This document shows, piece by piece, positions 30,515-49,007 of a stretch of 60,283 nucleotides of DNA; positions within the stretch are counted from its first letter, which is position 1, and each line of letters opens with the position of its first letter. The DNA lies in assembly GCA_045611665.1 (NCBI GenBank), contig JAZKXP010000006.1, positions 1-60,283 of the forward strand. The letters are read 5' to 3'. This stretch comes from Alphaproteobacteria bacterium. Lineage in GTDB: Bacteria; Pseudomonadota; Alphaproteobacteria; CAAHEQ01; UBA3637. The notes beneath the pieces are model-generated. The model did not search any database. It was given only the letters and a program-made list of their open reading frames with translations, and was not told the origin of the DNA. A program made the position numbers and the translations under genes.

Positions 30515-31282
30515 TTGCAAATGAGATTTACGGTATTATCGCCTTATCAAGTCTTTTTTATTGATGAAACCGAAAAATTGTGGACGGTTTTAAAAGATTC
30601 TCGTATCAGATTAATCGGTGCAGTCCCTGCTTTTTCCAATATTTCGGTATCTTATAAAACTTTATGTGGTGTAGAGTTTGACGGAGAGCATACCGTCATT
30701 TTGTCTATGCCTTTTGGATTTGCCGAAGAAAATCCTCATCAATTATTCAGATTGTTCGGATATTGTTATTATCCTACGTTGTTTGAAGGAAAACATCCTA
30801 AGGTAGCTTTGTTAAAGGCCGATTTGCTCAATCGAGCCGGAACGGCTGATTTAATTATTTATGAACGGGCCAGAACGAAGTTTCATCCTTTGGTTAAGTT
30901 GGCGGCTCGTATTATTCCTCCGAAATGGGACGCGCAAAATGGCTTGTTATATTATGTTACGGCCAAAGGAACGTTAGCGCGTACCAACGGAAAAACGGGT
31001 GAAAAATTGGCCGAATCAGCAGATTATTTTTGTTTGAATCGAACGGCAACGGAAATAGCCTATTACGATGGGGAACATATTTACACTGTTTCTTTGGAGA
31101 CGGGTAATACACGTAAGATTATGGCTTTTAATGTGACGGCACTCGGGTATTCGGGTGAGGGGGATGAGCTGTTTTTTGCAACTTCAAACGGCGAAACGCA
31201 TATGATACAAAAGTATAATAAACAAACGGATGAAGTGGATTTAATTGCCCGTGTTGCCGTTGCCGTTAGAATGATATTGTGA
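30515..31282 (+). CDS. hypothetical protein (possible TolB/PD40-like beta-propeller blades)
   Basis: TTG start (ATG 2 codons later). Repeated G..LY/YY....G motifs near the C-terminus. No firm domain call. Confidence 0.45.
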   Translation: MQMRFTVLSPYQVFFIDETEKLWTVLKDSRIRLIGAVPAFSNISVSYKTLCGVEFDGEHTVILSMPFGFAEENPHQLFRLFGYCYYPTLFEGKHPKVALLKADLLNRAGTADLIIYERARTKFHPLVKLAARIIPPKWDAQNGLLYYVTAKGTLARTNGKTGEKLAESADYFCLNRTATEIAYYDGEHIYTVSLETGNTRKIMAFNVTALGYSGEGDELFFATSNGETHMIQKYNKQTDEVDLIARVAVAVRMIL

Positions 31283-31352
31283 TTTTGTGTTTTTTTTATT
31301 GATTCTGATAAAAATACTTGCTCTTGCTTCGGGTATCTGTTATAACAAATGA

Positions 31353-31535
31353 CAGGGCGAGTGATGTGCGCCCCGAGGTATAAGAGCCTCTTTTCAGAAG
31401 CATCTTTTAGGATGAAACGTCTTTCCGGCTTGGCTGGAAGGCGGCCCAATAAGCCTTTTGCGGTCAATAAGCCGCACTATATCTTCTGAAATAGCTCTTA
31501 ACTTCCAGTCGCCACTCATCACGGCGATTTTTTAA
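31353..31535 (+). ncRNA. structured cis-regulatory leader RNA, copy A
   Basis: Promoter TTGCTC (31318-31323)/17 nt/TATAAC (31341-31346). GCCCCGAGG-loop-CCTCTT hairpin (31370-31392). Central hairpin CTTTCCGGC-TTG-GCTGGAAGG (31421-31441). GCTCTTA (31494-31500) is complementary to loop TAAGAGC (31381-31387). 3' box ACTTCCAG (31501-31508). Terminator TCGCC..GGCGA plus T6 (31509-31533). The GGAGG RBS and TTG start of 31548 follow. Confidence 0.75.
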
Positions 31536-31547
31536 TGGAGGTTTATT

Positions 31548-32906
31548 TTGAAACGTGATTTTGACTCCGGTCGGTCTATGGTGGAAATCATTGGCGTGAT
31601 GGCGGTGATGGGCGTTTTAATTATCGGCGGAATAGCCGGATACAAATACGCCATAGACAAAGCCAAAGCGAATCACATTATGAAAGATGTAGAACTGGCA
31701 TATGTGGCTGTATCTGCCTCCCCTGACCGAGAAAATATCGGCCTTACCGAATATACCGATGCCGTCAGCGGTTTTCCGACTTTTACAGAATGCATTATAG
31801 ATAAAGACTTTCAAGCAGATATTATCTTAGTCAAACACGTTCCTGAATCGGTCTGTGACAAAGTGTTGGAAATGGCCGAACCGACGCAGTGGATTGTTTC
31901 TTCGGTGGAAACGGATACGAATTATCTGTACCCGTTGACGGAATGTTCGGATACAAATGCATTAGTATTTTCTTTAGCCGATATACGCGATTTTGCATAC
32001 ACTTGCGATAAAGAATGTCCCGCAAATATGATGTGTGGCGTGAATGATGATTGTATTTGTGCCTATGGGTACAAGGCTGATGAAACAGGGACTTGTCAAG
32101 AAATTCAATGTGATGAAACGACAGAAGTCACTTGCACTTTTGACAGAGGGGAAAAATGGTGTTGCCCATACAATACATTCTGCAGCGAAACCCAAATCGG
32201 ACAATGTATTCCCTCAGATGGGTCATGTATTTATTACTTTTATGGTAATGGTAATACAGATTCTAAATATACAACAAATTGTAGTTACTTTGTTGCCGCC
32301 CAAGATACTGTCGAAAAAAATGGAACGAATTGCAGTTATATTATCAGTAGTTCTGGTACAGTAACATCCAACCAAGAATGTCCAGAAAAAAATCATTATT
32401 GCGCACTGATTTGGACAAAAGCAAGTTGGGAGGGAAATGAACAAGAGCCTATTGCATCTGGTAATTTTACTGGAACAATCTATGGTAAATGTCAATCAAT
32501 GGCGGCTTTTGAACGAACACCCGTCGTCTCATACAAAGAAGGAAAGTCAATGATTTACCCAAATATTGAATGTCCAGAAAAAAATCATTATTGTGCACTG
32601 ATTTGGACAAAAGAAAATTGGGAAGGAAATGAACAAGAGCCTATTGCATCTGGTAATTTTACTGGAACAATCTATGGTAAATGTCAATCAATGGCGGCTT
32701 TTGAACAAACACCTATTATGAAACACAATGATGCCAATCCTTTAAATTATCGTGTTGAAAAAGAATGTCCTCAAAAGCAATATTGCCATTTACAATGGTC
32801 AAATGAAATCTGCGAAATAGCTCCTGCAGATATAACTGGCCCAATATATGGAGCATGCGCGAGCATGAACACCTCAAATAAAGCTTGTCCCATAAAATCA
32901 GAATAA
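31548..32906 (+). CDS. Cys-rich protein with type IV pilin-like class III signal (sub-family A)
   Basis: TTG start 7 nt after GGAGG. MKRDFDSG|RSMVEIIGVMAVMGVLIIGGIAGYKYA. Head domain and three C-terminal ~64-aa repeats homologous to 1642..3069. Confidence 0.8.
   Translation: MKRDFDSGRSMVEIIGVMAVMGVLIIGGIAGYKYAIDKAKANHIMKDVELAYVAVSASPDRENIGLTEYTDAVSGFPTFTECIIDKDFQADIILVKHVPESVCDKVLEMAEPTQWIVSSVETDTNYLYPLTECSDTNALVFSLADIRDFAYTCDKECPANMMCGVNDDCICAYGYKADETGTCQEIQCDETTEVTCTFDRGEKWCCPYNTFCSETQIGQCIPSDGSCIYYFYGNGNTDSKYTTNCSYFVAAQDTVEKNGTNCSYIISSSGTVTSNQECPEKNHYCALIWTKASWEGNEQEPIASGNFTGTIYGKCQSMAAFERTPVVSYKEGKSMIYPNIECPEKNHYCALIWTKENWEGNEQEPIASGNFTGTIYGKCQSMAAFEQTPIMKHNDANPLNYRVEKECPQKQYCHLQWSNEICEIAPADITGPIYGACASMNTSNKACPIKSE
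32376..32900 (+). repeat. three tandem ~192-195-bp coding repeats; units 1 and 2 nearly identical
   Basis: Units start at about 32376, 32568 and 32763. Units 1 and 2 share a ~145-nt stretch with only a handful of mismatches (ECPEKNHYCALIWTK..WEGNEQEPIASGNFTGTIYGKCQSMAAFE). Confidence 0.85.
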
Positions 32907-32933
32907 ATAACTTTATAAAAGAAAGGCAAATAT

Positions 32934-33338
32934 ATGAAAAAAGTACTCATACTAATATGTATTATTTTAACAATATTTAATATTACATCAGTGCATGCGG
33001 AATCTTGTGCTGGTGGACATGGTACAATTCAAACTGGTATAAATGGCAAAAAGTATTGCGCCAGCAAAAATACTTTAAATTGGTGGAGCGCTCATGCTTG
33101 GTGTCGAAAAGCCGAAGGATTTTCTGAACTACTAACCATGGAAGATTGTGATTGTACTGGTTATGATGAATGTGATACAACATTAAGTTGTCCAAATTTA
33201 AAAAATATTTATGAAAGTTGGTCTGGTATTCCTGCGGGAAAAGATAACGCATATTATTTTTCGTATGGAGCCGTCAAACATCCTGGCCCTCTTGGAAGAT
33301 ATCGAAATTGGGGGGGCTATAGAGCACTATGTAAATAA
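32934..33338 (+). CDS. small secreted Cys-rich C-type-lectin-like protein
   Basis: Signal peptide. KYCASKNTLNWWSAHAWCRKAEGF...YRALCK pattern. Paralog of 43109..43555. 27 nt downstream of the pilin-like gene, so probably co-transcribed. Confidence 0.7.
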   Translation: MKKVLILICIILTIFNITSVHAESCAGGHGTIQTGINGKKYCASKNTLNWWSAHAWCRKAEGFSELLTMEDCDCTGYDECDTTLSCPNLKNIYESWSGIPAGKDNAYYFSYGAVKHPGPLGRYRNWGGYRALCK

Positions 33339-33447
33339 TTTTTCACTTTTGATTTTCTTTTATCCCCCATCAATGGGGGATTTTTTGTGCCATATATACA
33401 AAAAAAATACGCCGGCAAAACCGGCGTATCGTTATTCAAACCCCATC

Positions 33448-34086
33448 TTAACTGCGGTTAATCAAGGTAATTTCTACACGGCGGTTTTGTTCACGTCCGG
33501 CGGCGGTCGCATTGGACGCAATCGGATTTTGACTGCCCATACCGTCCGTCACGATGCGGTTGCCGTCAACACCTTGCAAACGCAAGTAATTAGACACCGC
33601 ATTGGCACGGCGCAAAGACAAGGCATTGTTTGTCGCGGCAGACCCCGTAGAATCCGTATAACCGATAATTTCCACCATTGTTTTGTTGTATTCGTTAATG
33701 ACTTTGGCAACAGAATTTAACACTGGTTGAAACTGAGCTCTAATAACCGCTTCATTCGTTCCAAATGTCACATTCCCCGGCATAATCAAATAAACACGGT
33801 CACCTTCTTGAGCCACTTGTACACCTGTTCCTTGTAATTCCAAACGCAATTTTTTGGCTTGAGCATCCATATAGGCCCCTGTACCAAGACCGGCAGCAGC
33901 CCCAACACCTGCACCGATTAAAGCGCCTTTTTTACCACCGGCAATAGCTCCGATACCGGCACCGACAGCCGTTCCGATACCTGTTCCCCAAGCCGTTTTA
34001 GATACTTGGCTTTGACCCGTGTACGGATTAGTCGCACATGCCGATAAAAAGGCAACCAAACAAATACTTGCAATTATTTTTTTCAT
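33448..34086 (-). CDS. OmpA-family lipoprotein with glycine-zipper (YiaD/Omp16-like)
   Basis: Lipobox FLSAC, Gly-zipper GIGTAVGAGIGAIAGG, OmpA_C motif GYTDSTGSAATNNALSLRRANAV. Confidence 0.85.
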   Translation of the reverse strand: MKKIIASICLVAFLSACATNPYTGQSQVSKTAWGTGIGTAVGAGIGAIAGGKKGALIGAGVGAAAGLGTGAYMDAQAKKLRLELQGTGVQVAQEGDRVYLIMPGNVTFGTNEAVIRAQFQPVLNSVAKVINEYNKTMVEIIGYTDSTGSAATNNALSLRRANAVSNYLRLQGVDGNRIVTDGMGSQNPIASNATAAGREQNRRVEITLINRS

Positions 34087-34253
34087 ATTATTTTCTCCTG
34101 TTGTTTAAAATCATATGTCTATTTTATTAAGTTTATGACCTCTGTCAAGATGTTTTTATCGGATTTTATTTATTTCAAAAGTCTATATTGCCGTTGGTAT
34201 CAAAAATGCCTACTTAAGATACAGGCTGATTATCAAAAAAAGGGGGGAATAAA

Positions 34254-35018
34254 ATGCCGCAATCGAAAAAAAATGAAATTCACCGAGAAACGTGTGTATG
34301 TCCTATGTCTATTCCGTTAATTGGAGATAAAGCGCCGGCGTTTGAGGCCGAAACAACGAAAGGGTTGCTTCGATTTCCGGAAGATTATCAGGGCCGATGG
34401 GTGATTTTATTTTCTCATCCGGCCGACTTTACACCCGTTTGTACAACGGAATTTATTATGTTTGCCAATTTATTGGAAGAATTTCGTCAGATGAATGCCG
34501 AACTGATCGGATTGTCCGTGGATAGTTTATCCAGCCATATTGCTTGGTTGTATGCAATTGAACAAGAAGTTAAATTTAAAGGGCATAAAAATGTCAAAAT
34601 AGACTTTCCTCTCATTGCCGATTTAAGCACACACATTGCAAAAAAATATGGTATGCTTCATCCGAATGCCAGTACGACAAAAGCCGTACGAGCCGTTTTT
34701 TTTATTGATCCGGAAGGGATTATTCGGACGATTTTATACTATCCGGCTTCTACAGGGCGTAATTTTTCAGAAATGAAACGCATTCTATCCAGTTTGCAAC
34801 TAACTGATATGTACGGGGTTTCTACTCCGGCTGATTGGTGTCCGGGAGATGATGTCATTGTGCCCAATCCTTCTACTTTAGAAGAAGCCGCAGCTGCGCA
34901 TAATCGTAATGCTCAATCGACAGAGGTGTGGTTTTTATCTTTAGAACCGATGCCGACCGAGGCACCCCAAAAGGAAAACAAAAAGAAATGGTCCGGGTGT
35001 AAAAAGAGTAAAAAATGA
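34254..35018 (+). CDS. 1-Cys/Prx6-type peroxiredoxin
   Basis: GDKAP.F.A.T..G...F.......W..LFSHPADFTPVCTTE. Strong RBS AGGGGGGAA before ATG 34254. Confidence 0.85.
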   Translation: MPQSKKNEIHRETCVCPMSIPLIGDKAPAFEAETTKGLLRFPEDYQGRWVILFSHPADFTPVCTTEFIMFANLLEEFRQMNAELIGLSVDSLSSHIAWLYAIEQEVKFKGHKNVKIDFPLIADLSTHIAKKYGMLHPNASTTKAVRAVFFIDPEGIIRTILYYPASTGRNFSEMKRILSSLQLTDMYGVSTPADWCPGDDVIVPNPSTLEEAAAAHNRNAQSTEVWFLSLEPMPTEAPQKENKKKWSGCKKSKK

Positions 35019-36214
35019 CACGGACTCAGCCTGTTAAAAAATTCGGTCTTGGATTGTGGAGTGCTGTTTCACTGGGAATAGGGTCTATTATTGGCGCCGG
35101 TATTTTTGCTTTATTGGGACAAGTGGTTTTATTGGCGGGAGATAAAACCTATTTATCTTTTTTGGTTTCCGGTATTATTGCATGTTTATGCGGATATACG
35201 TATGCAAAATTAGCCGCTGTTTATCCCGATTCCGGAGGGTTAACGGATTATTTTCATAATGCTTTTAAATCTAAATTAGTATCCGGAAGCTTATCGTTAA
35301 TTTATTATTTTACGTCGGCGGTTTCTATTTGTACGATGGCAAAATCTTTTGGCCTTTATATGGATCAGTTATTGCCTCATACATTTTTGCCACATTTGGT
35401 CGTTAATGTGTGCGCTGCCGGATTAATTGTTGCGTTGGGTTTTTTGAATATGTTGACGTCATCTGATGTCGGCCGGGTGGAAACGATTTTGGTGTCTTTA
35501 AAGGTTGGGATTATGTGCTTATTAGTTGCGGCTGCCGTTTATCAGTTTGATTTTCGTTTCCATGCACACCCGATTAAACCGACAACTATGGATTTTTTTC
35601 GTAGCGTAGGTATTACATTTTTTGCCTATGCCGGATTTGGTGTGATTACGAATGCGGCAGCCGATGTAAAAAATCCGCAAAAAACAATTACACACGCGAT
35701 TTATTTAACGTTGGGAATAGTTGCTTTACTGTATATGGGATTGGCATTCGTCGTCTTAAACTATGTTCCGATGGCCGAATTTTATAAAAATACGGATACG
35801 GCTGTGGCTGTGGCGGCCAATAAATTATTAGGACGGGCCGGATATGGCGTTTTATATGTTGCCGCCATCATGGCTTTTATATCCGGTATCAGCGCCACTT
35901 TTTTCAGCATTTTCCGCATTTCCCGTTCTTTGGCCTATCAAGGTGTTATGCCGAAAATTTATAAAGAAAAGTTTTGGCATAAAGGTAGTTACGGTAATTT
36001 TTTAACGGTTTGTCTGGTGACATTAGCCACAATTTTATTTGATTTTAATGCTATCGTTAATTTATCCAGCGGAGCTTATTTAGTCAGCTATTTGAGTATT
36101 TTTATCGCAGGTTTTGTTTTGCGTAAAAAAACACAAATCAGTGTTCCGATTGTGGCAACCGGTTTTATGTTAATGAGTGGTGTTTTAATCGGATTTTTAA
36201 TCAGCTTAAGTTAA
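35015..36214 (+). CDS. APC-superfamily amino acid permease
   Basis: 12-TM protein. N-terminal GSIIGAGIFALLG motif. Confidence 0.75.
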   Translation: MTRTQPVKKFGLGLWSAVSLGIGSIIGAGIFALLGQVVLLAGDKTYLSFLVSGIIACLCGYTYAKLAAVYPDSGGLTDYFHNAFKSKLVSGSLSLIYYFTSAVSICTMAKSFGLYMDQLLPHTFLPHLVVNVCAAGLIVALGFLNMLTSSDVGRVETILVSLKVGIMCLLVAAAVYQFDFRFHAHPIKPTTMDFFRSVGITFFAYAGFGVITNAAADVKNPQKTITHAIYLTLGIVALLYMGLAFVVLNYVPMAEFYKNTDTAVAVAANKLLGRAGYGVLYVAAIMAFISGISATFFSIFRISRSLAYQGVMPKIYKEKFWHKGSYGNFLTVCLVTLATILFDFNAIVNLSSGAYLVSYLSIFIAGFVLRKKTQISVPIVATGFMLMSGVLIGFLISLS

Positions 36215-37140
36215 TTTTTTAAATATGCCTTAATTTTATTTTTGACTTGTTTTTTGGTGGTTTTAAATGATTTTTTTAATCCTTGAATTTTAGCGGTAAT
36301 AAAATCTTTTTTGCGTTTGAGCGTTGTTTGTTTTGTGATACCTAACAGATGTTTTTTTTGATTTTTTGTTAAGTCCATTTGTTTGATGGTATCATTATAA
36401 ATACGATAAATTTCATTCCAATGTTTCCAGAAAATACATAATTTTGTTTTATCGGTTTTATGTGACAATGATTTTGGATAAATAATATATTTTGATAAGA
36501 TTTCATCTAAATAACAATAGGTGCCAAAGTAATTAACAGGAATTTGAATTTGAAAGTTTTGTCCTATTCGTGACGGATAAATTTTTAAGGTGGGATTTGC
36601 TGCTGCCAATTTTTTTGTTCGCATTAAATACCCGCATTGTCCAATCCAAGACTCATCTTGTAATAAATTCATCAGCATATTTGTTTTATCGGGATTTAAC
36701 CGAATTTGGTATAAGGTTTTTTCGGTATTTTCAGCAGATACAACATCATAGGGGTGATAAACAATGTCACATTCGGGATTATTTTTTAATGTATGGACCA
36801 ATTTTTCTATACGGGTTGGCAACATAATATCATCACTGTCAAATTGAGTGAAAAATTCACCTGTAACATATGGCAATCCTAAATTACAGGCATGGCCTAT
36901 ACCACCATTTTTAGGTGATTGAATATATGTAATTTTAATATTGTTTTTTTGTAAAATGGATTGCCACTGTTGAAAAATGCTGTGAGTTGTATCTGTTGAA
37001 GCATCATTGATAAAAATTAATTCAATCGGCCTGTATGTTTGTTTTAATAAAGAATTTAAAAAAATATCCATTGTTTTAGCGCCATTATAGCATGGAGTTA
37101 AAACGGATACTAAATTTTTTTTAAAATGATTTTTACTCAT
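36211..37140 (-). CDS. family 2 glycosyltransferase
   Basis: VSVLTPCYNGAKTMDIFLNSLLKQTY..IELIFINDASTD GT-A signature. Confidence 0.8.
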   Translation of the reverse strand: MSKNHFKKNLVSVLTPCYNGAKTMDIFLNSLLKQTYRPIELIFINDASTDTTHSIFQQWQSILQKNNIKITYIQSPKNGGIGHACNLGLPYVTGEFFTQFDSDDIMLPTRIEKLVHTLKNNPECDIVYHPYDVVSAENTEKTLYQIRLNPDKTNMLMNLLQDESWIGQCGYLMRTKKLAAANPTLKIYPSRIGQNFQIQIPVNYFGTYCYLDEILSKYIIYPKSLSHKTDKTKLCIFWKHWNEIYRIYNDTIKQMDLTKNQKKHLLGITKQTTLKRKKDFITAKIQGLKKSFKTTKKQVKNKIKAYLKN

Positions 37141-38176
37141 AGTAATCTGTTATGTCCTTGTGTGAATTAAATTGTGATAAACATGTATGATAAAAAGGGG
37201 ATGATATTCCGGATAACAAAGGAACAATTTGTGCCAGGCTTTGTTTTTTATGATATGGATTCCAACTGACAAAATTTTGATTTGATAATATTTCAAAATT
37301 ATCCGGCGTAATTAAATCAAAATAAAATCCGCCGGCATTTTTTTCACGGACCGTTATTGTCGGGATATCATGATTAATTAAATCCATGGCTGCATATCCG
37401 CCACGACAAACGGCTAAACAAAAATGATTTGTTTTTAAATAATCCGATACATCCACGAATCCGTCATATATCAAACGGTGCTGATGGTTAATTTTATGGC
37501 TGTCCGGTATTGGATAGCCGATACAATGTATTGTGTATGTTTTGGGTAAAATATCAATAATATCATTTAAAATATCATGTATGGGTGTTTGATTGGTCAA
37601 CATAAATAATATGTTATGAGAGGGATAAAATGTCGGTTTTTTGTTTGAAACGTTATAAGCGTTTTTAACTAACAGTGTTTTATCCAGATACCGGGGGAAT
37701 TTTTGTATAAACATATCGGCAAGCGGAAGGCTGACCGTGATGATTTTATCAAAAGATTTTTGGGGTGGACAAAATAATGAAACGGAAGGAAGACCGTGCA
37801 ATGTATAAAAGAGTTTTGTTTTGTTGGACAGAACGGGTAAATCGGCAATCCATTCAGTATAAAACGGGTGTATATCCAGTATGTCAAACCGGCAAAAAAA
37901 TAAAAAGGACGTTAAAATATTTTGTTTGAAAGGGATAATAACGATATCTTTAAAATAACCGGTTGGTTTTATTTTCATATCTTGTTTTTGTGTTTGAGTC
38001 AGCAAAACAAAATGGTATTTTTGATGGTATAAATTAACAATATGATTGATACGGGTTTCTAAGCCACCCCCTTTGAATGATTCGGAAACAATCAGGATTT
38101 TTTTTCTTTTGTTAAAGAGGGTATGTGTGAAACACCGAATGATTTGTCCGTAAATTTTAAAATTATCAAATACCAT
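37133..38176 (-). CDS. putative GT-B-fold glycosyltransferase
   Basis: N-terminal KILIVSESFKGGGLE resembles the GT4-type N-terminus. Within the operon, overlapping neighbours. Weak similarity only. Confidence 0.45.
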   Translation of the reverse strand: MVFDNFKIYGQIIRCFTHTLFNKRKKILIVSESFKGGGLETRINHIVNLYHQKYHFVLLTQTQKQDMKIKPTGYFKDIVIIPFKQNILTSFLFFCRFDILDIHPFYTEWIADLPVLSNKTKLFYTLHGLPSVSLFCPPQKSFDKIITVSLPLADMFIQKFPRYLDKTLLVKNAYNVSNKKPTFYPSHNILFMLTNQTPIHDILNDIIDILPKTYTIHCIGYPIPDSHKINHQHRLIYDGFVDVSDYLKTNHFCLAVCRGGYAAMDLINHDIPTITVREKNAGGFYFDLITPDNFEILSNQNFVSWNPYHKKQSLAQIVPLLSGISSPFYHTCLSQFNSHKDITDYYE

Positions 38177-38182
38177 AGGGGA

Positions 38183-39301
38183 TCAATCCAAATGCTGAGA
38201 TAAAATGGCTTCAATTTGTTGAGCAGCCGTTCCACTTCCATAGGGATTGAGTTTTTTGTTTAAGCGTGTATCGGCTTTACTTTGAGATAAAATATGACGG
38301 GCATTTGAGATGATTTTTTCTGTATCGGCACCGACCAATTCGGCAAAACCGGCTTCTACTCCTTCCATGCGTTCTGTTTCATAACGCATCACCAAAATGG
38401 GAACGCCGAAAGAGGGCGCTTCTTCTTGAATACCACCCGAATCGGTTAAAATTAATTTTGCCTCACGCATCAGACAAACCATTTGAGGATAGGTAAGAGG
38501 GGAAGTGAGAATAATATTTTCCCGTCCGGATAATTCGGCATGTACTTTTTCCTTTACGTTGGGATTGGGATGTACCGGTAAAATAAATTGATGGTCCGGA
38601 TAGGCCGAAGATAATGCCCAAATGGCCGCCAAAATATCATTCAGGCGTGATCCGTGATTTTCTCGGCGATGGACAGTACACAGTACCAGTTTATCATTGA
38701 ATGTAATCCCCTTTTCCGAAAGGGTATTTTTGGCGTCAAAGAGAGCTTCATCAGATAAACAGGTGAGGGCATCAATAACGGTATTACCGGTTAGATAAAT
38801 TTTATCGGCCTGTATATTTTCTGAACGTAAAGCATTTACGGCTTTTTGTGTTGGAGCGCAATGCCATGTTGTGATACGGGCCGTCATTTGACGCAGTGCT
38901 TCTTCCGGAAACGGTTCAAATAAGTCATAAGACCGGAGACCGGCTTCCACATGACAAACGGGTACTTTGTGATAAAATGCCGTTAGAGCCCCACATAGTA
39001 CGGTCATTGTGTCGCCTTGAACAATGACACAATCCGGTGGTGTTGTTTTGAATGTGTTATTTAAAGCCGTTAATATACGCGCCTGTATTTCCGTCAGAGT
39101 TTGATTTGGTCTCATACAGTCTAAATTCATATCGGCTTGAATATTAAAAAACTGAAGCGTTTGGTTAGACAGCTCTTTTTGTTGTTCTGTATTACAAACG
39201 ATAACTTGGTATTTTTCCGGATATTTTTTTAATTCTAAAATAACTGGAGCTAATTTTATAGCCTCAGGCCGCGTTCCCAAAATGATTAAAATTGTTTTCA
39301 T
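38183..39301 (-). CDS. wecB: UDP-N-acetylglucosamine 2-epimerase (non-hydrolysing)
   Basis: ILGTRPEAIKLAP, HVEAGLRS, TDSGGIQEEAPSFGVP motifs. Confidence 0.9.
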   Translation of the reverse strand: MKTILIILGTRPEAIKLAPVILELKKYPEKYQVIVCNTEQQKELSNQTLQFFNIQADMNLDCMRPNQTLTEIQARILTALNNTFKTTPPDCVIVQGDTMTVLCGALTAFYHKVPVCHVEAGLRSYDLFEPFPEEALRQMTARITTWHCAPTQKAVNALRSENIQADKIYLTGNTVIDALTCLSDEALFDAKNTLSEKGITFNDKLVLCTVHRRENHGSRLNDILAAIWALSSAYPDHQFILPVHPNPNVKEKVHAELSGRENIILTSPLTYPQMVCLMREAKLILTDSGGIQEEAPSFGVPILVMRYETERMEGVEAGFAELVGADTEKIISNARHILSQSKADTRLNKKLNPYGSGTAAQQIEAILSQHLD

Positions 39302-40544
39302 TTAATATCTCCTGTAATATATGATGCCACCGATTTCGCCATATTTTTTTAGAAAAGCATTGGCTGGTTTTTAGGGCATTTTGTGATAATTGCATTCGTA
39401 AGTTTGGATTTGACAGAACCAATTCTAAGGTTTCCAATAATTCTTTTGAATTCGGATTAATTAATAAACCGTTATAGCCTTGTAAAATCAAGTTGGGCAG
39501 ACCTCCGACATTTGTGGCAATAACGGTGTTGCCCGAAGCCATAGCCTCTAAACATGATAGGCTGGTGCCTTCGGAATGTAAGGTTGGGATGAGGCAAATA
39601 TCCGTATTTTGATAAACCTCAGGCATTTTATCACCTTCAACAATGCGATGGGAAATTTGATTCGGAAATTGGTGTTTTAACCTGTCTAAATCCTGCACGA
39701 TTTCTTCTTGGCAGGGAAAGCCTACAAATTCAAACAATACATCCGGATGACGAGACAGTAAAGTCGGTAAAATATCGGCGGTTTCCCAATACCCTCGTTC
39801 AATGGAACATCGTCTGGGAAAGGTTATTTTTACGGGATGATTTATTCTTTTAATCGGTTTGAAAGTGTCTAAATCTACGTAATTTGGAATGTAGTACATT
39901 TTTTTGTCGGATTGATAAACCGTCTGTGAAAATGTGGAACGAAACCAAGATAATGTGTTGGTATCTACGGATATAAAAGTGTCAGTCTCTTTTAAATAGA
40001 TATCATATAATTGTGTGATATTTTCGACATTTTTTTTGACGATATCCCATGTAATGCCGTGAGAAATTCGTATGTTTGGATGATTTAAGGGGCCGAAATT
40101 GGCAACACCCGAGTAAATGTATAACGCCGCTTTCGGTAATTTAGATAACATGTCGGCAATAAAGGCTGTTTCGTAAACGGGTATGCCGATAACGTTCAGA
40201 TTATTTTTGTTTCGAAAAAACGGTGCGATATCTTGATTGGCATTTTGCAATAAAATAGGGATATATCCCATATCTGTCAGCAATTGTGCTAAATCTAAAG
40301 CATACCGTTCTCCACCGCCCGAAAAAAAGTTTTCACCCCGAAAATCAAAAAAGGATTCTTGAATGATGTAAATGGCTTTATCTGTTTTTCCACCCGTTAT
40401 TGAGATTATTTTGTCACAAATCGGGTCGGCATTTTTCAGTAAGTATTTTTGAAAGGCTTTAAATTTTTTAAATCGTCTGTATTTTTTTAACGGACAAACG
40501 GCTGTTTTAAAGGCACGTTTATACCATGGTTTAGGCTTTTTCAT
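39264..40544 (-). CDS. family 4 (GT-B) glycosyltransferase
   Basis: C-terminal EGTSLSCLEAMASGNTVIATNVGGLP..I..G.NG is the GT1/GT4 E-x7-E region. Confidence 0.8.
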   Translation of the reverse strand: MKKPKPWYKRAFKTAVCPLKKYRRFKKFKAFQKYLLKNADPICDKIISITGGKTDKAIYIIQESFFDFRGENFFSGGGERYALDLAQLLTDMGYIPILLQNANQDIAPFFRNKNNLNVIGIPVYETAFIADMLSKLPKAALYIYSGVANFGPLNHPNIRISHGITWDIVKKNVENITQLYDIYLKETDTFISVDTNTLSWFRSTFSQTVYQSDKKMYYIPNYVDLDTFKPIKRINHPVKITFPRRCSIERGYWETADILPTLLSRHPDVLFEFVGFPCQEEIVQDLDRLKHQFPNQISHRIVEGDKMPEVYQNTDICLIPTLHSEGTSLSCLEAMASGNTVIATNVGGLPNLILQGYNGLLINPNSKELLETLELVLSNPNLRMQLSQNALKTSQCFSKKIWRNRWHHILQEILNENNFNHFGNAA

Positions 40545-41388
40545 ATTTTTTCCCCATTAATCCTTTGATAACGAATAAACCGTAAAATAATCGCCCCCAA
40601 AGGGGTGAAACGGTTAAAATTTTATCTTTACTTGTTTTGTCCTTTAATCGTTTGAATTGTTTAAATAAACTGACTGTTTTGGTATAAGATGATAAGTGCC
40701 ATTGAGACCAATAAGCCAGTTTTACTTCTAATGTTTTTTGTTGGACTTGCTGTTGTTTGGTTGCGGTTAAAGAGGATGAATTGTCACGATATTTATATAA
40801 GCAATCATTTAATTTCATAAAATGAATGCCGGCTGTGTATAAGCGCATCCAATATTCGTAATCTTCTGCACAAAATAAGTTTTCATTATATCCGCCCAAT
40901 GTATCGTAACATGTTCGTCGATATAAAAAACACGCTCCGATACAGCACCCGTTGTATAATGATTTTGGGGTTTTTAAACGGATAGTTTTTTTTGCGTTTC
41001 CTTGCTCATCAATGATTTGCATATCGGCATAAACAAAGTCGGTTTCGGGATGTGATTGAAAAGCGTTTATCATCACCTCAAACGCATTGGGCAGATATCT
41101 GTTATCATCACTGGTCCAAGTGAAAAAATCACCTTTTGCTTGGGCAAATCCTATGTTCAATGAGGCCGGTAATTTTTTATTAACCGCATTGGTTATGATA
41201 CGAATTCGATTATCTTTTTTGGCGTAATCTTTTAAAATATCGGCGGTTTTGTCGGTTGAACAATCATTGATGATAATCAGCTCAAAGTCCGCAAACGTTT
41301 GTGCCAAAATACTGTCAATGGATTCGGATAAAAATCGCATACCGTTATATGTCGGCAAAATAACCGATAGTGTCGGATTTTGTGTCAT
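40531..41388 (-). CDS. family 2 glycosyltransferase (first gene of operon)
   Basis: LSVILPTYNG..FL.ESIDSILAQTF.DFELIIINDCSTD; DDN motif. Confidence 0.8.
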   Translation of the reverse strand: MTQNPTLSVILPTYNGMRFLSESIDSILAQTFADFELIIINDCSTDKTADILKDYAKKDNRIRIITNAVNKKLPASLNIGFAQAKGDFFTWTSDDNRYLPNAFEVMINAFQSHPETDFVYADMQIIDEQGNAKKTIRLKTPKSLYNGCCIGACFLYRRTCYDTLGGYNENLFCAEDYEYWMRLYTAGIHFMKLNDCLYKYRDNSSSLTATKQQQVQQKTLEVKLAYWSQWHLSSYTKTVSLFKQFKRLKDKTSKDKILTVSPLWGRLFYGLFVIKGLMGKKYEKA

Positions 41389-41504
41389 ACTTTCCCCCTT
41401 AAAGTATTTACGAATATAATCGGATAGGTTATATGGGGGGTATCGACTGAAAAATCAATACTTTTGTGTAAAAAAAACATATATTTCAAACTCCCGTTTT
41501 TTGT

Positions 41505-41687
41505 TAAACAAAAACCACTTAAAAAGTGGTTGGAAGTTGAACACTACTTTAGCCAAATAGTACATCGTATTCGCCGGAACAACGACTTATTCAGATGTCT
41601 TCCAACCGTTGTTGGAAGTATTGATATCCTGTTTTTTCAAGATAGGCTAAAAAGAGGTGTTCAAACCTCGGGGCAAAAAATTACCTT
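41505..41687 (-). ncRNA. structured cis-regulatory leader RNA, copy D (upstream of glycosyltransferase operon)
   Basis: On the minus strand: GCCCCGAGG-TTTGAACA-CCTCTT. Loop TTGAACAC (plus-strand 41657-41664) is complementary to GTGTTCAA (41537-41544). Central hairpin CTTCCAAC-AACG-GTTGGAAG (41599-41618). 3' box ACTTCCAACC (41528-41537). Terminator AACCACTT-TTT-AAGTGGTT plus T run (41505-41531). Weak promoter TTGCAT/17 nt/TACCCT (41694-41722). Confidence 0.7.
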
Positions 41688-41793
41688 ATTCTCAGGGTAT
41701 CAAAAATTTTTTTAAGATGCAACATAAAAATAAAAAGATTGCATTTTATATGTTTTTTTGGCACACTGTTTTTTATCAGAAAAGGGCAATGAA

Positions 41794-42381
41794 ATGTTTG
41801 AACAATTGGAACAAATTCGTCAAAAATGTGCAGCATGTCAAAAGTGTGCATTGTGTCAAACTCGCACAAAATCCGTTTTTTCCGGTGGTATTCCAAATCA
41901 TAAATTGATGTTAATTGGTGAAGCTCCCGGTTTTTTTGAAGACCAACAAGGTGAACCTTTTGTCGGAAAAGCCGGTCAGTTATTGGATAAAATTTTTGAA
42001 TCGGTAGGCTTAAGTCGTCAAAAAGATGTGTATATTTGCAATACGATTAAGTGTCGTCCGCCCGATAACCGAGACCCTTTGCCTCAGGAAAAAGAGGCGT
42101 GTCGAGAGTATCTGGATGCTCAGCTTGATATTTTAAAGCCCAAAATTATTTTATTGTGTGGTAAGGTGGCTTTAAAATCCTTTGTTAATACAGATTTAGG
42201 TATTACAAAGGTGCGAGGTAAATGGTTTGATGGGCCAAACGGGGCTAAAATGATGCCGATTTTTCATCCGTCGTATTTGCTCAGAAATGCTCAAAAAACC
42301 GTCGGGTCTCCGAAGTGGTTAATGTGGCAGGATATTCAAGAAATTAAACGGGTCTATGATACGTTATCTGGTGGCGATTAA
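41794..42381 (+). CDS. udg: family 4 uracil-DNA glycosylase
   Basis: ORF track 41758..42381. ATG 41794 follows RBS AAAGGG. C..C..C Fe-S cysteines, GEAPG..ED..G.PFVG.AG, HPS. Confidence 0.85.
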   Translation: MFEQLEQIRQKCAACQKCALCQTRTKSVFSGGIPNHKLMLIGEAPGFFEDQQGEPFVGKAGQLLDKIFESVGLSRQKDVYICNTIKCRPPDNRDPLPQEKEACREYLDAQLDILKPKIILLCGKVALKSFVNTDLGITKVRGKWFDGPNGAKMMPIFHPSYLLRNAQKTVGSPKWLMWQDIQEIKRVYDTLSGGD

Positions 42382-42824
42382 AAAGAGTTAGCTGTTATTT
42401 TGTTGACATCACAGGCGGGCGGTAAAGTGTCTTCTTTCACTTTGACCAATTCCCCCGTTGGTGTTAATTCATAAAGGGTGAGGGTAATGGGATGAACATC
42501 CATCCACGAGTTGCCAAACTCACGTTTTTTGCGTACAATCCGAAATGGATTTGTGTAAAAGTCAAAATCTTGTACCATGCAGTCGGCTCCTTCCATCGTG
42601 TTAAAATTTTCTACAGAAATTTGATGCCATTTATTATCCCGAAAAACTTCCAATAAAAACGTATCGTACCCATGAGCGGTTATATTGGGACTATGTATAC
42701 GTGTTATGCGAATTTTTATGTTGTTTTGTGTCAAATCGGTTGTGCCGATCGGTATGTTTAACGGTTCGGCCCATACCACGGCAGACCACATCATCACACA
42801 TAATCCCAATAAAAATTTTATCAT
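42378..42824 (-). CDS. hypothetical secreted protein
   Basis: 148 aa with signal peptide MIKFLLGLCVMMWSAVVWA. No recognisable domain. Confidence 0.5.
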   Translation of the reverse strand: MIKFLLGLCVMMWSAVVWAEPLNIPIGTTDLTQNNIKIRITRIHSPNITAHGYDTFLLEVFRDNKWHQISVENFNTMEGADCMVQDFDFYTNPFRIVRKKREFGNSWMDVHPITLTLYELTPTGELVKVKEDTLPPACDVNKITANSF

Positions 42825-42895
42825 ATTTTACGAATACGTCATTTTAAACCATTTTTCGGGTTGATTTTTGTATGTGGATTTGCTAATCTGATTTT

Positions 42896-43077
42896 AAGGT
42901 AAGTATTTTGCCCCGAGGTGTCAGAACCTCTTAAAGCGCGTCCGACAGCGGACGAAAAATATACGCTTTCCAGCATTGGCTGGAGGGCGGCAAAATAGGC
43001 AGTAATGCTGAATATGCCCACTATTCGCTTTAATAGTTCTGAACTTCCAGCCACTTTTTTTATAAAGGTGGTTTTTT
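42896..43077 (+). ncRNA. structured cis-regulatory leader RNA, copy B
   Basis: Promoter TTGATT (42861-42866)/17 nt/TAATCT (42884-42889). GCCCCGAGG-TGTCAGAA-CCTCTT (42910-42932). Loop TCAGAAC (42921-42927) is complementary to GTTCTGA (43036-43042). Central hairpin CTTTCCAGC-ATTG-GCTGGAGGG (42966-42987). 3' box ACTTCCAGCC (43043-43052). Terminator CCAC..GGTGG plus T6 (43051-43077). Confidence 0.75.
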
Positions 43078-43108
43078 GTTGAATGATAACAGAAAGGGAA
43101 TGTTCAAA

Positions 43109-43555
43109 ATGAAAAACTTATTTTTAATCTGTGCTGTTTTATTCACTACACCTGTTGCATTGGCCGATGATATCACTACCGAAACTTGTGCGAATGGCGC
43201 CGGAACAGTTATTGTGGGAAAAAGCGGTACTCAATATTGCATGAGCAACAATACAATGAATTTTTGGAATGCTTATTCTTGGTGTGATTCTTTGGGGATG
43301 CGTTTTATTGATTTAAATACTGAATGTGGATGTTCATCATTAGTTGATTGTAATGGACCTGTAAATACAGCAGGAAAATGTCCTGAATTGGCAACGGGGG
43401 TGGATACAAATATTTATATTTGGACAACATATTCTCAGGGACAAAATCCCTTGCTGATGAGCATTAATAATGGTGAAATTACATCGTATTGGACATATCG
43501 TTCACACACATCAAATGGTGTTAAAGGATGGCCATATCATGCTTTATGTCGCTAA
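43109..43555 (+). CDS. small secreted Cys-rich C-type-lectin-like protein
   Basis: ORF track 43076..43555. ATG 43109 follows RBS AAAGGGA and gives signal peptide MKNLFLICAVLFTTPVALA. QYCMSNNTMNFWNAYSWCDSLGMRF...YHALCR. Paralog of 32934..33338. Confidence 0.7.
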   Translation: MKNLFLICAVLFTTPVALADDITTETCANGAGTVIVGKSGTQYCMSNNTMNFWNAYSWCDSLGMRFIDLNTECGCSSLVDCNGPVNTAGKCPELATGVDTNIYIWTTYSQGQNPLLMSINNGEITSYWTYRSHTSNGVKGWPYHALCR

Positions 43556-43617
43556 TTGTAAAAAAAACAACCCCGCCAAACCGGCGGGGCATTTCGCATA
43601 ACTTATCGTAAAATAAA

Positions 43618-43977
43618 TTATTCTTTGTCTTCGGTAATACGAGCGGCTTTACCGAACAAATTGCGCAAGTAGTACAATTTGGAACGACGGACTTTACCAC
43701 GACGAACGACTTCAATGCTGGCGACGTTCGGAGAGTAAATCGGGAAAATTCTTTCAACTCCTTCACCGAAAGAAATTTTACGGATTGTCATTGTGGAGTT
43801 CAAACCATCGTTGGAACGAGCGATACAAACACCTTCATACGCTTGTAAACGTTCACGACCTTTATCTTCAATGATTTTGCACATCACTTTAACGGTATCA
43901 CCAGCTTTAAATTCCGGAATGGATTTGTTCAATTTGGCGATTTGTTCGTTTTCCAATTGTTTAATTAAGTTAGTCAT
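43618..43977 (-). CDS. rplS: 50S ribosomal protein L19
   Basis: [12 protein letters not shown]....[11 protein letters not shown] matches the L19 N-terminus (ORF track starts 5 codons earlier, at 43992). Confidence 0.9.
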
Positions 43978-43996
43978 GTTTTTACCTTTCATTTTA

Positions 43997-44677
43997 TTAT
44001 TTTTGGCAATAAGTTGTCCATAAATCAGGACGTCTTTGTTTAGTCATTTCTTCAGACATGTGCCGGCGCCATTTGGCGATATTGGCATGATGTCCGCTGA
44101 GCAGTATGTCGGGCACTTCACGACCTTGCCAGACGGCAGGTTTTGTGTATTGCGGATATTCCAATAATCCATTGGCAAAACTTTCTTCCGATAAAGAATC
44201 GGCATTTCCCATAACGGATGGAATTAAACGGATAACGGCATCTAACATTGTTAATAGGGCAGGTTCTCCACCACTTAAAACAAAATCGCCGATGCTGATT
44301 TCTTGAATGTTATATTTTTCAATAACGCGTTCGTCAATTCCTTCAAAACGGCCACAAATAAAGGTCGCTTTTTCCATATTGGCAAATGTATGGGCCATTT
44401 TTTGAGAAAAAACCTTACCACGTGGCGATAAATAGAAAATGGGTTCATCTTCATGGACCGAAGCAATGGCTTTATCCAATACTTCCGGTTTCATCACCAT
44501 ACCGGCACCACCGCCAAAGGGTGTATCATCAACGGATTTGTATTTGTCGGTTGCAAAATCACGAATGTTGATGACATTCATAGACCATTTGTTTTCAGCG
44601 AGTGCCCGACCAGCCAAGGAATATCCAAGGCATCCGGGGAACATTTCGGGATAAAGTGTCAAAATGTTAATCTTCAT
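43997..44677 (-). CDS. trmD: tRNA (guanine37-N1)-methyltransferase
   Basis: [15 protein letters not shown]..., [23 protein letters not shown] 44675-44677 follows a GGAGA RBS. Confidence 0.9.
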
Positions 44678-45179: not shown

Positions 45180-45190
45180 TTATTTATTCC

Positions 45191-45945: not shown

Positions 45946-47385
45946 TTACTTATCGGTGCAAAGTATAAAACCAGCAGAATATTGATTAGCATCATAAGGT
46001 GATATATGCTCTGTTCCGCCACAAATAAAACGTTGTGAAGTATTCTCAGAATAAACATCTTCCAGCCACTTTCTGTTAATGTTGGTTTTAAATGATTTTG
46101 CTCGATTGTTGGGAACAACGGTTGAGAGGTGTTCTGAATCAAATGACCACGATAAATAAAAATCATCGGCTTTGGCCATTCGCCATCCACTAGAACTACA
46201 GACATCTTTGGCCGTGTACCAATTTGTAAAATCGCTACTAGTTGAGGGGAAATACCAATTTTCCGTATGTTCTATGCCATTTTCATCCGTAAATGTAATT
46301 GTTTCGGTTGTATAGGATGGTACCTGTTCGCAAACACCACTCCCGTTTTGGGATAACCCATTACAGTATTGTCCACTGCCACACACCTTATGCGAGGTAC
46401 ATGAAATGGCGCAAGTCCCATCTAGCCAACATATACCGATTTGGTTATCTTGCGTTATACACATATTCCCTATCAAATAGGTACAAGAATTATCTTGACA
46501 CCCGACACAAACTGTATCTACTCCTTGTTCTGTGGCATACATAGTACAATCAATACCCCCACATAGCGTGTTTTCAGTTTGGCATATACCATTAGAACAC
46601 ACACCTTGCTTACCGTTTTTCTCACAAGTTAATCCACCGATAAGAGTTGGTGTACCATCTGCTACAACAAAGCAAGCTGGATCATAAGGGCAATTTTCCA
46701 CACTGCCGGTTTCACTGATACAAGTTTGTGTTCCGTCTGCCATACAAGTACCCAATACGCAATATCCCGTTTGTCCATCTTCAGTTGTACATTTAGATAT
46801 TGGTCCATTATTACTACAGCCTTTATTTTCTTCTTCATCAAAATAAAAGACCAACGTATTTTCATCACCGCAATCGCCGGCGTTTTCTCCCGCATATTCG
46901 GCATTAATTTTAACAGCTTTTGCATGTTTTTCCATACCCTCTACCATCAACTCACATACACGGCTCGGCACACCGGATACCTGAATTCCTATGGTTTCAT
47001 CTTCTAACGTAATCGGGTAAAGAGTCTTTTCATTTTTCCACCCATCTAAGGTGGCATCTCCGGTTGTATCAAACTGAGCCAACACATCTACAGCTCGTAC
47101 ATTCACATCATATATAGTCCGATTTGCCCGATATTTGTCCATACCGTAGCTGTAGCCGGCAATTCCGCCGACACTCAATACGCCGATGATGGCCAAAGTA
47201 CCGAGCATTTCTACCATAGAACGTCCACTTTGTGCTATGATGGCCCCTCGGGTCTTCGTTTCACTCCGACCGAGGGAGACAGAAAGGGGGAAACGACCGG
47301 CTTCTACTTTTCTATCATACTGGTGCCCCTCACCAGTATCCAGCAGTAATGAGGCATTATTATGGTTAAAATCTTGCGTAGCCAT
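45946..47385 (-). CDS. Cys-rich protein with internal pilin-like class III signal and C-type-lectin-like C-terminus (sub-family B)
   Basis: RBS AAGGAAG before ATG 47385. The motif ...AQSG|RSMVEMLGTLAIIGVLSVGGIAGYSYGMDKYRAN begins only at about residue 53. Many CxxGxxC modules. C-terminus FTNWYTAKDVCSSSGWRM...GFILCTDK. Confidence 0.75.
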   Translation of the reverse strand: MATQDFNHNNASLLLDTGEGHQYDRKVEAGRFPLSVSLGRSETKTRGAIIAQSGRSMVEMLGTLAIIGVLSVGGIAGYSYGMDKYRANRTIYDVNVRAVDVLAQFDTTGDATLDGWKNEKTLYPITLEDETIGIQVSGVPSRVCELMVEGMEKHAKAVKINAEYAGENAGDCGDENTLVFYFDEEENKGCSNNGPISKCTTEDGQTGYCVLGTCMADGTQTCISETGSVENCPYDPACFVVADGTPTLIGGLTCEKNGKQGVCSNGICQTENTLCGGIDCTMYATEQGVDTVCVGCQDNSCTYLIGNMCITQDNQIGICWLDGTCAISCTSHKVCGSGQYCNGLSQNGSGVCEQVPSYTTETITFTDENGIEHTENWYFPSTSSDFTNWYTAKDVCSSSGWRMAKADDFYLSWSFDSEHLSTVVPNNRAKSFKTNINRKWLEDVYSENTSQRFICGGTEHISPYDANQYSAGFILCTDK

Positions 47386-47414
47386 TTAGACTTCCTTTCA
47401 ATTTACAAATTAAA

Positions 47415-47597
47415 CGAAAACCACCTTTATAAAAAAAGTGGCTGGAAGTTAAGAGCTATTAAAACCAAACAGTATGATATATTGACCCCATAGGGCTATT
47501 TTATCATCCTCCAGCCAATGCTGGAAGTATTTTATGTCCTTGACTATAGGACAGGTTTTAAGAGGCTCTTATACCTCAGGGCAGAACACCTGCCTTA
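47415..47597 (-). ncRNA. structured cis-regulatory leader RNA, copy C
   Basis: Promoter TTGCAA (47627-47632)/17 nt/TAGTGT (47604-47609) on the minus strand. GCCCTGAGG-TATAAGAG-CCTCTT. Loop TAAGAGC (plus 47565-47571) is complementary to GCTCTTA (plus 47450-47456). Central hairpin CTTCCAGC-ATTG-GCTGGAGG (47508-47528). 3' box ACTTCCAGCC (47440-47449). Terminator (47417-47440). Confidence 0.75.
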
Positions 47598-47642
47598 AAA
47601 ATTACACTATCGAATTTTTTTATCTTTTGCAATACTAAAATA

Positions 47643-47696: not shown

Positions 47697-49007
<1,311 letters not shown>

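Follow-up and report, generated by a model that had tools for sequence, protein, structure and literature searches.

The window, by which we mean the whole 60,283-nt stretch of DNA analyzed, holds four copies (A to D) of a structured leader RNA that align over ~240 nt including the promoter. Their 5′ box, GCCCNGAGGTN7CCTCTT, occurs four times in the window, where 0.04 occurrences would be expected by chance, and a covariance model that scores the copies at 117 to 165 bits detects no others there. The alignment and scores uphold the claim of a sequence-only reading that the four form one RNA family. Folded singly, copies A and D have far greater stability than shuffled sequences (z = −4.3 and −5.4, respectively). 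The copies, their promoters, and the genes that they precede are placed as follows.

31318..31346, + strand: promoter of copy A, with a −35 element TTGCTC (31318-31323), a 17-nt spacer, and an extended −10 element TGTTATAAC (31338-31346), conserved in homologues
31548..32906, + strand: gene after copy A, encoding a 452-aa Cys-rich protein with a prepilin-like N-terminus (G followed by RSMVEIIGVMAVMGVL) and a pilin-like model; Shine-Dalgarno GGAGG at 31537-41
32934..33338, + strand: second gene of the copy A operon, encoding a 134-aa secreted Cys-rich paralogue of the small lectin-like family (ESCAGGHGT...NWWSAHAWC)
42861..43077, + strand: copy B, promoter at 42861-42889
43100..43555, + strand: gene after copy B, encoding a ~150-aa signal-peptide protein (ETCANGAGTV...WNAYSWCD) with a C-type-lectin-like model
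47417..47632, − strand: copy C, promoter at 47604-47632
45946..47385, − strand: gene after copy C, encoding a 479-aa prepilin-like, Cys-rich protein with a lectin-like C-terminal motif
41510..41722, − strand: copy D, promoter at 41694-41722
40531..41480, − strand: region downstream of copy D, with a 31-codon uORF (start 41478-41480) and a GT2 glycosyltransferase gene (40531-41388)

Copy A heads an operon with one gene of each of the two protein families that recur behind the leader, prepilin-like Cys-rich proteins and ~140-aa secreted C-type-lectin-like proteins. Both families are unannotated, and the leader RNA would be a marker of their regulon. In the prepilin-like family, the N-terminus G-RSMVE-MLGxLAIIGVLS is invariant in 30 homologues and the C-terminal parts are variable and Cys-rich; the family has at least 638 homologues, none of them a named protein, and the source names among the 120 matches listed are all those of Alphaproteobacteria MAGs. 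Its matches to prepilin HMMs are below threshold (TIGR02532, 11.8 bits vs 16.3; PF07963, 11.3 vs 21.2), and in the protein encoded behind copy C the sub-threshold matches to both models fall at residues 53-74. An AlphaFold model (pLDDT 69) shows a 50-residue N-terminal helix and a β-sheet; the PDB entries that match it over nearly its full length, all weakly (E 0.09-0.5), are confined to type IVb pilins, namely TcpA and the pilin of ETEC. The small secreted proteins, which carry a signal peptide and the motif ETCANGAGTV...WWNA..WCD, have no Pfam or NCBIfam match; their model (pLDDT 74) has a weak best PDB match in the C-terminal domain of Bdellovibrio Bd2740 (E 3e-3, TM 0.47/0.59), followed by CD23, DC-SIGN, and LYVE-1. 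The pilin-like and lectin-like character of these products is consistent with the earlier assignment of the downstream genes to surface or secreted functions. The uORF behind copy D overlaps the start of the glycosyltransferase gene, the first of a GT/wecB cluster, by ATGA. No regulator gene is evident adjoining the leaders in the window, where the flanking genes are housekeeping.

Rfam 15 searched over the whole window at gathering thresholds gave no match to the leader, and at E ≤ 10 over positions 31000-48000, which hold all four copies, it gave nothing relevant. Sub-threshold matches, besides tRNAs, were at chance level only (e.g., sRNA-Xcc1, 24 bits vs 53), and five related loci matched only tRNAs. 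The models without a match include all known riboswitch classes, T-box, c-di-GMP-I/II, and ribozymes. EGFOA, with which the leader had tentatively been equated, is a structured RNA of gut-associated bacteria that is reported to lie near genes for cell-exterior proteins, and in these respects the two are alike. Its model, however, matches neither any copy, even at E ≤ 10, nor the five related loci, and the identification was rejected. In the literature, EGFOA is Rfam RF02955, and its two members EGFOA_Vei_C1A6 and EGFOA_Pae_6186 are putative small RNAs in large intergenic regions (bioRxiv 10.64898/2026.07.01.735769). No description of the leader family was found in the 200 of 408 supplementary files covered from a human-microbiome structured-RNA catalogue (PMC8040213) or in literature on RF32, Alphaproteobacteria, and pilin.

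Homologues were gathered from three sources. Scanning one genome per GTDB species for the exact pattern yielded 15 real loci, all in “Alphaproteobacteria bacterium” MAGs of ruminant-gut or similar origin; another exact match, in a Bacillota MAG, was rejected as chance. A metagenome scan yielded nine more loci, and contigs encoding homologues of the downstream proteins added further copies. A covariance model (R1) at E < 1e-10 collected 43 type 1 copies, 41 of them distinct, from 35 sources, including copies that do not fit the exact pattern. The family is multicopy (at least 10 leaders among the contig pieces examined of MAG RGIG3823) and was seen in one lineage only, that of the “Alphaproteobacteria bacterium” MAGs and related metagenomes. 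In ~42 of 44 informative copies, a sense ORF starts 25 to 140 nt downstream and almost always encodes a member of one of the two protein families; no copy lies inside a gene, and two orphans (L001 and L018) have no adjacent ORF. The proposal that each copy sits directly upstream of a gene in sense orientation holds with respect to orientation and to a position in a 5′ leader with a promoter; it does not hold for copy D, which is 138 nt from its glycosyltransferase gene with the uORF between.

Each copy had been credited with its own promoter, and across more than 40 homologues we find a conserved T-rich stretch followed by TTGCAA, 17 nt, and TGnTAnnnT, ending 7 to 9 nt before the first hairpin. 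A generic promoter scan did not list this element because its hexamers are off-consensus. Intrinsic terminators lie 3′ of all four copies, with a GC-rich hairpin and then a U-tract preceding the start codon, again in agreement with the earlier claim. Those of B, C, and D were detected by a terminator scan, and that of copy A, whose 9-nt loop just exceeds the limit of the scan and accounts for its omission, was read from the sequence and folded. Taken across the homologues, these data show the predicted promoter, the predicted terminator, and the gene association of the leader.

The OFF, or terminator, fold is the single-sequence MFE structure of 28 of 30 copies. It comprises a 5′-terminal hairpin (P0), a long closing helix (P1), a four-way junction with P2, P3, and P4, and then the intrinsic terminator, which begins 2 nt past P1. 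P1 totals 18 to 20 bp and is built from P1a (GAGGU:ACUUC), a 1-nt bulge, the hypervariable 7-bp P1b, an internal loop (CUC / RUA), and P1c (6 to 9 bp). P2 is variable, P3 is CUUCCARC/GYUGGARG, and P4 is a hairpin in two parts separated by a near-symmetric AAUA/AAUA internal loop. The elements of this fold, together with those of the alternative (ALT), or antiterminator, fold, are located as follows.

31355..31373, + strand: copy A P0 (GGGCG/CGCCC, loop AGUGAUGUG), supported by covariation; loop complementary to the terminator loop
31375..31390, + strand: copy A switch hairpin Pa, GAGGU (31375-79) with GCCUC (31386-90) in ALT
31375..31387, + strand: copy A 5′ strands in OFF, GAGGU (31375-79) of P1a, pairing with ACUUC, and UAAGAGC (31381-87) of P1b
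31392..31400, + strand: copy A P1c 5′ strand UUUCAGAAG, pairing with 31483-31491
31401..31414, + strand: copy A P2, variable hairpin
31421..31441, + strand: copy A P3, anti-antiterminator hairpin CUUUCCGGC-UUG-GCUGGAAGG
31432..31440, + strand: copy A P3 3′ arm GGCUGGAAG, also the antiterminator 5′ strand
31441..31475, + strand: copy A P4, internal loop (N)AAUA(A) / CAAUA(A)
31476..31494, + strand: copy A Pm region, with ACUAU (31476-80), the P1c 3′ strand (31483-91), and AAUAG
31494..31505, + strand: copy A P1b 3′ strand GCUCUUA (31494-31500) and P1a 3′ strand ACUUC (31501-05)
31502..31510, + strand: copy A 3′ box CUUCCAGUC, the antiterminator 3′ strand
31508..31533, + strand: copy A terminator, GUCGCC, 9-nt loop, GGCGAU, U6; first 3 nt common to the antiterminator
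42898..43077, + strand: copy B P0 42898-42912, Pa/P1 5′ strand 42915-42938, P3 42966-42987, P4 42987-43018, 3′ box 43044-43052, terminator 43049-43077
47417..47594, − strand: copy C P0 47580-47594, Pa/P1 5′ strand 47554-47577, P3 47508-47527, P4 47474-47507, 3′ box 47440-47448, terminator 47417-47443
41510..41685, − strand: copy D P0 41672-41685, Pa/P1 5′ strand 41645-41669, P3 (A/U variant CUUCCAAC/GUUGGAAG) 41599-41618, P4 41562-41598, 3′ box CUUCCAACC 41528-41536, terminator 41510-41531

Across the 41 distinct sequences, 91.7% of cells in the OFF fold are paired, compared with 35 to 47% when partners are slid, and both sides have changed in 34 of 48 pairs, a value reached by 0 of 500 shuffles; the covariation first described from four copies is thus retained in a larger alignment. 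P1a and P1b are 98.2% paired. Complementarity in P1b holds in all 41 copies, and its five variable pairs show 7 to 22 double changes each with only 1 unpaired cell. All six modelled pairs of P1c covary (98.7% paired), and this helix also appears in the single-sequence MFE fold of copy A. All five pairs of P0 covary (95.6% paired), as do both P4a and P4b, and the AAUA of P4 is invariant on both strands in type 1. In P2, all seven pairs covary, but the helix is loosely aligned (73.5% paired). P3 is 95.7% paired with many G-U pairs, and the covariation reported for this central hairpin is evident in one pair that is GC in 25 and AU in 15 sequences. The loop of the first hairpin had been described as pairing with a 3′ segment. 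This complementarity is real in 41 of 41 sequences, but it belongs to P1b of the long closing helix and is an alternative to hairpin Pa: because the loop is wholly used by P1b and the C of the stem also belongs to P1b, Pa and P1b would not form simultaneously. A pseudoknot in which the loop pairs while the hairpin stays shut was rejected. Also rejected was a role for P1b as a gene-specific address, as identical 7-mers turn up ahead of both gene classes in a single genome.

A dispersed repeat of the MITE or REP kind, or an EGFOA member, in either case lacking a specific switch, would be multicopy within a genome as the leader is, and an OmpA-family lipoprotein gene (33448-34086) does lie nearby. 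That gene is on the opposite strand and downstream of no copy, the Rfam search is negative at E ≤ 10, orientation and distance to the ORF are fixed, promoter and terminator are conserved, and the 34 compensatory pairs would be difficult to account for, making this explanation highly improbable. Copies are sense upstream of ORFs, or orphan, rather than randomly oriented, and their conservation follows the pattern of helices.

The second fold emerges from the same data. RNAalifold applied to 30 sequences picks ALT unprompted, with hairpin Pa formed and the P3 3′ arm paired to the 3′ box. Pa (GAGGU/ACCUC) is a local hairpin that is 97.1% paired in the 41 distinct sequences, with double changes in three pairs; in L031 and L034, a G-to-A change breaks the terminal P1a pair and Pa compensates by C-to-U. 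The 9-bp antiterminator, in which the 3′ box pairs with the P3 3′ arm, surpasses P3 in pairing (99.7% of cells) and has four compensatory pairs, and two positions covary three ways among the P3 5′ arm, P3 3′ arm, and 3′ box (G/C/G with A/U/A and C/G/C with U/A/U). A third element, Pm (ACUAU/AUAGU), spans the P1c 3′ strand and is paired in 96.6% of cells, with a compensatory CUGU/GCAG variant in L008:82. Pm and P1c are mutually exclusive, as are Pa and P1a/P1b, and the antiterminator excludes P3 or P1a and takes the first 3 to 4 nt of the terminator stem. These data substantiate two proposals of the sequence-only reading, that two CUUCCARC boxes compete for GYUGGARG and that the geometry is one of transcription attenuation, with an overlap between the antiterminator and the terminator 5′ arm that is kept by compensatory change. 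The inclusion of the 3′ box in the terminator stem, noted for copy D, is correct as an overlap, but it holds in all copies rather than in D alone. Comparative analysis shows both predicted folds and their mutual exclusivity.

The strongest evidence that both folds are under selection comes from a divergent variant, type 2, found at three loci (L027, L031, and L015) upstream of the same gene families; type 1 copies are also present at all three. Type 2 swaps GAGG/CCUC/CUUCCAGC for GGG/CCC/CAUCCRCC, so that its 5′ hairpin is GGGC-loop-CCC, its P3 is GRCAUUCRCC/GGYGGAUGUC, and its 3′ box CAUCCRCC is perfectly complementary to the P3 3′ arm. In Pm, CCGU...ACGG replaces CUAU...AUAG. Every alternative pairing of type 1 is retained in different letters. 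Type 2 also indicates that most of the invariant bases of type 1 owe their conservation to having two or three pairing partners each, and not to being read by an effector. What is unpaired and conserved in both types is the AAU-containing P4 internal loop (AAUA in type 1, AAU(A/C) when both types are compared) and an A-rich J2/3; the junction strands are variable or just A-rich. The four-way junction, the P4 internal loop, Pm, type 2, and the link to two protein families had been missed in the earlier reading.

We propose, with a probability of roughly 0.7, that each copy is a cis-acting transcription attenuator with two mutually exclusive folds before an intrinsic terminator. The ~185-nt leader would be transcribed from its own sigma-70-type promoter. 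In the OFF state, the 3′ segment would zip onto the 5′ segment to form P1c, P1b, and P1a, closing the P2/P3/P4 junction; ACUUC of the 3′ box would then be locked on GAGGU, P3 would hold GYUGGARG, and the terminator hairpin and U-tract would form just 3′ of P1, stopping transcription before the gene. Closure of P1 would start from P1c as a toehold and proceed by strand displacement through Pa. In the ON (ALT) state, GAGGU would be held in Pa so that P1 stays open, the P1c 3′ strand would be the loop of Pm, and the 3′ box would displace the P3 5′ arm and pair with the P3 3′ arm, giving a 9-bp antiterminator stacked on P4. Because the antiterminator would use the first 3 to 4 nt of the terminator stem, polymerase would enter the pilin-like or lectin-like gene.

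When the antiterminator is forced, the full leader lies a median of 13.3 kcal/mol above its MFE, and transcripts ending just past the 3′ box, before the terminator 3′ arm, lie 8.9 kcal/mol above theirs. From the resulting preference of ~9 to 13 kcal/mol for OFF, we infer the direction of regulation, with termination as the default state and read-through needing an effector that must capture or favor ALT. A bias of 9 to 13 kcal/mol is large for any effector unless control is kinetic, and this counts against the attenuator reading, as do the two orphan leaders and the gap behind copy D.

Our leading guess is that the effector is a lineage-specific RNA-binding factor that would clamp Pa, the gate of the P1-closing strand displacement; the AAUA/AAUA internal loop of P4 is the other candidate sensor site. 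A factor acting at Pa or P4 is favored by the occurrence of the leader in this lineage only, by its tight co-occurrence with two lineage-specific protein families, by the coexistence of two orthogonal types in one genome, and by the lack of a conserved junction pocket. A true riboswitch, in which a small molecule (e.g., a signalling nucleotide governing adhesion) would shift the OFF/ALT balance from a site in the P4 internal loop or the junction, is a possible but doubtful alternative. The leader is a large multi-helical RNA with strong covariation, it occurs in many copies per genome before one functional gene class, the P4 loop is the one unpaired element kept in types 1 and 2, and there is a likeness to c-di-GMP riboswitches that by default cause termination ahead of C. 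difficile pilA1 and adhesin genes (PMC6366702). However, nearly all invariant type 1 bases are explained by double or triple pairing and replaced in type 2, no known class matches in Rfam, and the junction strands are variable or merely A-rich. Riboswitch classes are mostly widespread, whereas this family is confined to the one lineage of MAGs, and ligand-stabilized P1 helices are usually far shorter than the 18 to 20 bp of P1 here. If the leader were a riboswitch all the same, it would be a new class, with a signalling nucleotide or a cue from the host or the gut as its plausible ligand, and would turn on variable type-IVb-like pilins and lectin-like adhesins as one regulon. The leader is probably a new family of cis-acting transcription attenuators, which may be a riboswitch or protein-controlled.

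The attenuator reading places the leader among regulators of a kind already known; the family, its architecture, and its doubly supported bistability are new. As in trp-type, PyrR, and BglG/SacY attenuators, there are four segments with overlapping complementarity, namely the P3 5′ arm (1), the P3 3′ arm (2), the 3′ box (3), and the terminator 3′ arm (4), and as in the trp-type geometry, 1:2 with 3:4 would terminate, 2:3 would antiterminate, and default termination would be relieved by a factor. The leader differs from these systems in having no leader peptide, in the ~90 nt that separate segments 2 and 3, and in a second long-range helix, P1 as opposed to Pa, that would gate the choice. It is also much larger, with its four-way junction, than known protein-binding attenuator sites. 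Leader-peptide attenuation was rejected: copy A has a 25-codon ORF, but its start and frame are unconserved in the alignment. Linker lengths in the leader vary by non-multiples of 3. The type 1 sequence ACUUCC is complementary to a frequent GGAAGU Shine-Dalgarno, and sequestration of that element by the 3′ box or P3 5′ arm was rejected as a general mechanism, type 2 boxes having no such complementarity. Riboswitch platforms and T-box antiterminators likewise use exclusive helices to decide the fate of a terminator, with strand displacement as the switching step. In the leader, by contrast, each conformer is separately supported by covariation over nearly its full length, and the sister type has re-coded all of the switching sequences.

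By analogy, the nearest functional counterpart is Cdi-2-4, the c-di-GMP-II “ON” riboswitch before Clostridioides difficile pilA1, which the riboswitch's terminator blocks by default (PMC6366702). Both would place a default terminator before a type IV pilin gene (pilin-like for the leader), and both belong to multi-copy families associated with adhesins and pili. The leader nonetheless has no match to the c-di-GMP-I/II models, a different architecture, and a host of another phylum, and any ligand binding by it is putative. Its significance lies in being an uncatalogued, high-copy RNA before what appear to be the main surface adhesin families of uncultured gut Alphaproteobacteria. It is unusual for both conformations of a switch to be independently visible in comparative data, and the two predicted conformers together with a re-coded sister type would make a clean natural system for co-transcriptional strand-displacement switches. 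The leader is also a well-defined orphan for effector hunting, whether for a ligand or a protein.

The preference for termination bears on one more alternative, that the functional product is the terminated ~185-nt RNA, a multicopy sRNA that acts in trans or sequesters protein, with the gene expressed by read-through or from another promoter. An RNA with its own promoter, an efficient-looking terminator, a default fold that is the terminated one, and two orphan copies without an ORF behind them has features of such a product. We regard this as improbable given that ~42 of the 44 informative copies are sense and 25 to 140 nt before an ORF, almost always of the two protein families, and that the terminator-destroying fold, which would be purposeless in a stand-alone sRNA, has been preserved through compensatory change, in type 2 as well. 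Complementarity between the P0 loop and the terminator loop could let the two kiss in one subfamily, giving a compact closed molecule; this hints that the terminated RNA may be a stable product with a role of its own.

Within the leader subfamily having the GUCGCC...GGCGAU terminator, of which window copy A is a member, GUGAUG in the loop of P0, the leader's 5′-terminal hairpin, is complementary to CAUCAC in the terminator loop. The complementary segments of copy A, identified by sequence complementarity, are as follows.

Window 31360-31368 and 31514-31522, + strand: complementary loop segments of leader copy A

This complementarity is seen also in leader copies of the homologous loci L012, L013, L020, L027, L028, L005, L002, and L008, and both L008 copies have UUGGUGU and ACACCAA in place of GUGAUG and CAUCAC. 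Because the loops are complementary and L008 has different letters on both sides, a covarying kissing-loop contact may join the 5′ hairpin to the terminator. In the other leader subfamily the loops are short, without complementarity between P0 and terminator loops.

The divergent type 2 leader has every switching sequence re-coded, to GGG/CCC, GACAUUCGC/GCGGAUGUC, the 3′ box CAUCCGCC, and CCGU/ACGG. Type 2 leaders precede the same two gene families as type 1, pilin-like and small secreted lectin-like, and the loci with type 2 leaders hold type 1 copies too. L031 has two near-identical counterparts, L035 and L036.

L027:7523-7695, - strand: type 2 leader
L031:9783-9955, + strand: type 2 leader
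L015:~741-914, - strand: type 2 leader

Three further sites lie in loci L027, L001, and L018.

L027:~9890-9935, + strand: region upstream of a pilin-like paralogue (gene at 10001) without a leader copy
L001:382-542, - strand: full-scoring leader copy without an ORF after it
L018:840-1000, - strand: full-scoring leader copy without an ORF after it

The L027 region contains two strong hairpins and a dinucleotide tract, (AC)n, in which the unit is repeated about 20 times or more; this could be a slipped-strand phase-variation site. In L001 and L018, a second terminator-like hairpin comes next instead of an ORF, and these copies could represent stand-alone small RNAs or else leaders that have been orphaned.

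Further features lie around leaders A, C, and D in the window.

32934-33338, + strand: small secreted lectin-like family gene
41385-41480, - strand: 31-codon ORF between leader D and a GT2 glycosyltransferase gene
47637-47714, - strand: sub-threshold PyrG_leader match (35.6 bits versus 65)
45946-47385, - strand: protein with a long N-terminal extension (residues 1-53)

The lectin-like gene, a paralogue within a family also represented 3′ of copy B, directly follows the copy-A pilin-like gene, and therefore both of the putatively leader-controlled families are co-operonic there. The 31-codon ORF encodes MFFLHKSIDFSVDTPHITYPIIFVNTLRGKV behind a GGGAG Shine-Dalgarno sequence, and the overlap of its stop with the GT2 start codon (ATGA) suggests translational coupling. 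The PyrG_leader match, between eno and the leader C promoter, corresponds essentially to the intrinsic terminator of eno (47646-47675) and probably reflects a chance resemblance. Several pilin-like and lectin-like proteins, from window 45946-47385 and from L010, L016, L033, and L011, have unusually long N-terminal extensions (30-70 aa) that precede the G|RSMVE site or signal peptide and have motifs in common, e.g., LLLDTGEGxQYDR and DSRVFANATHKND.
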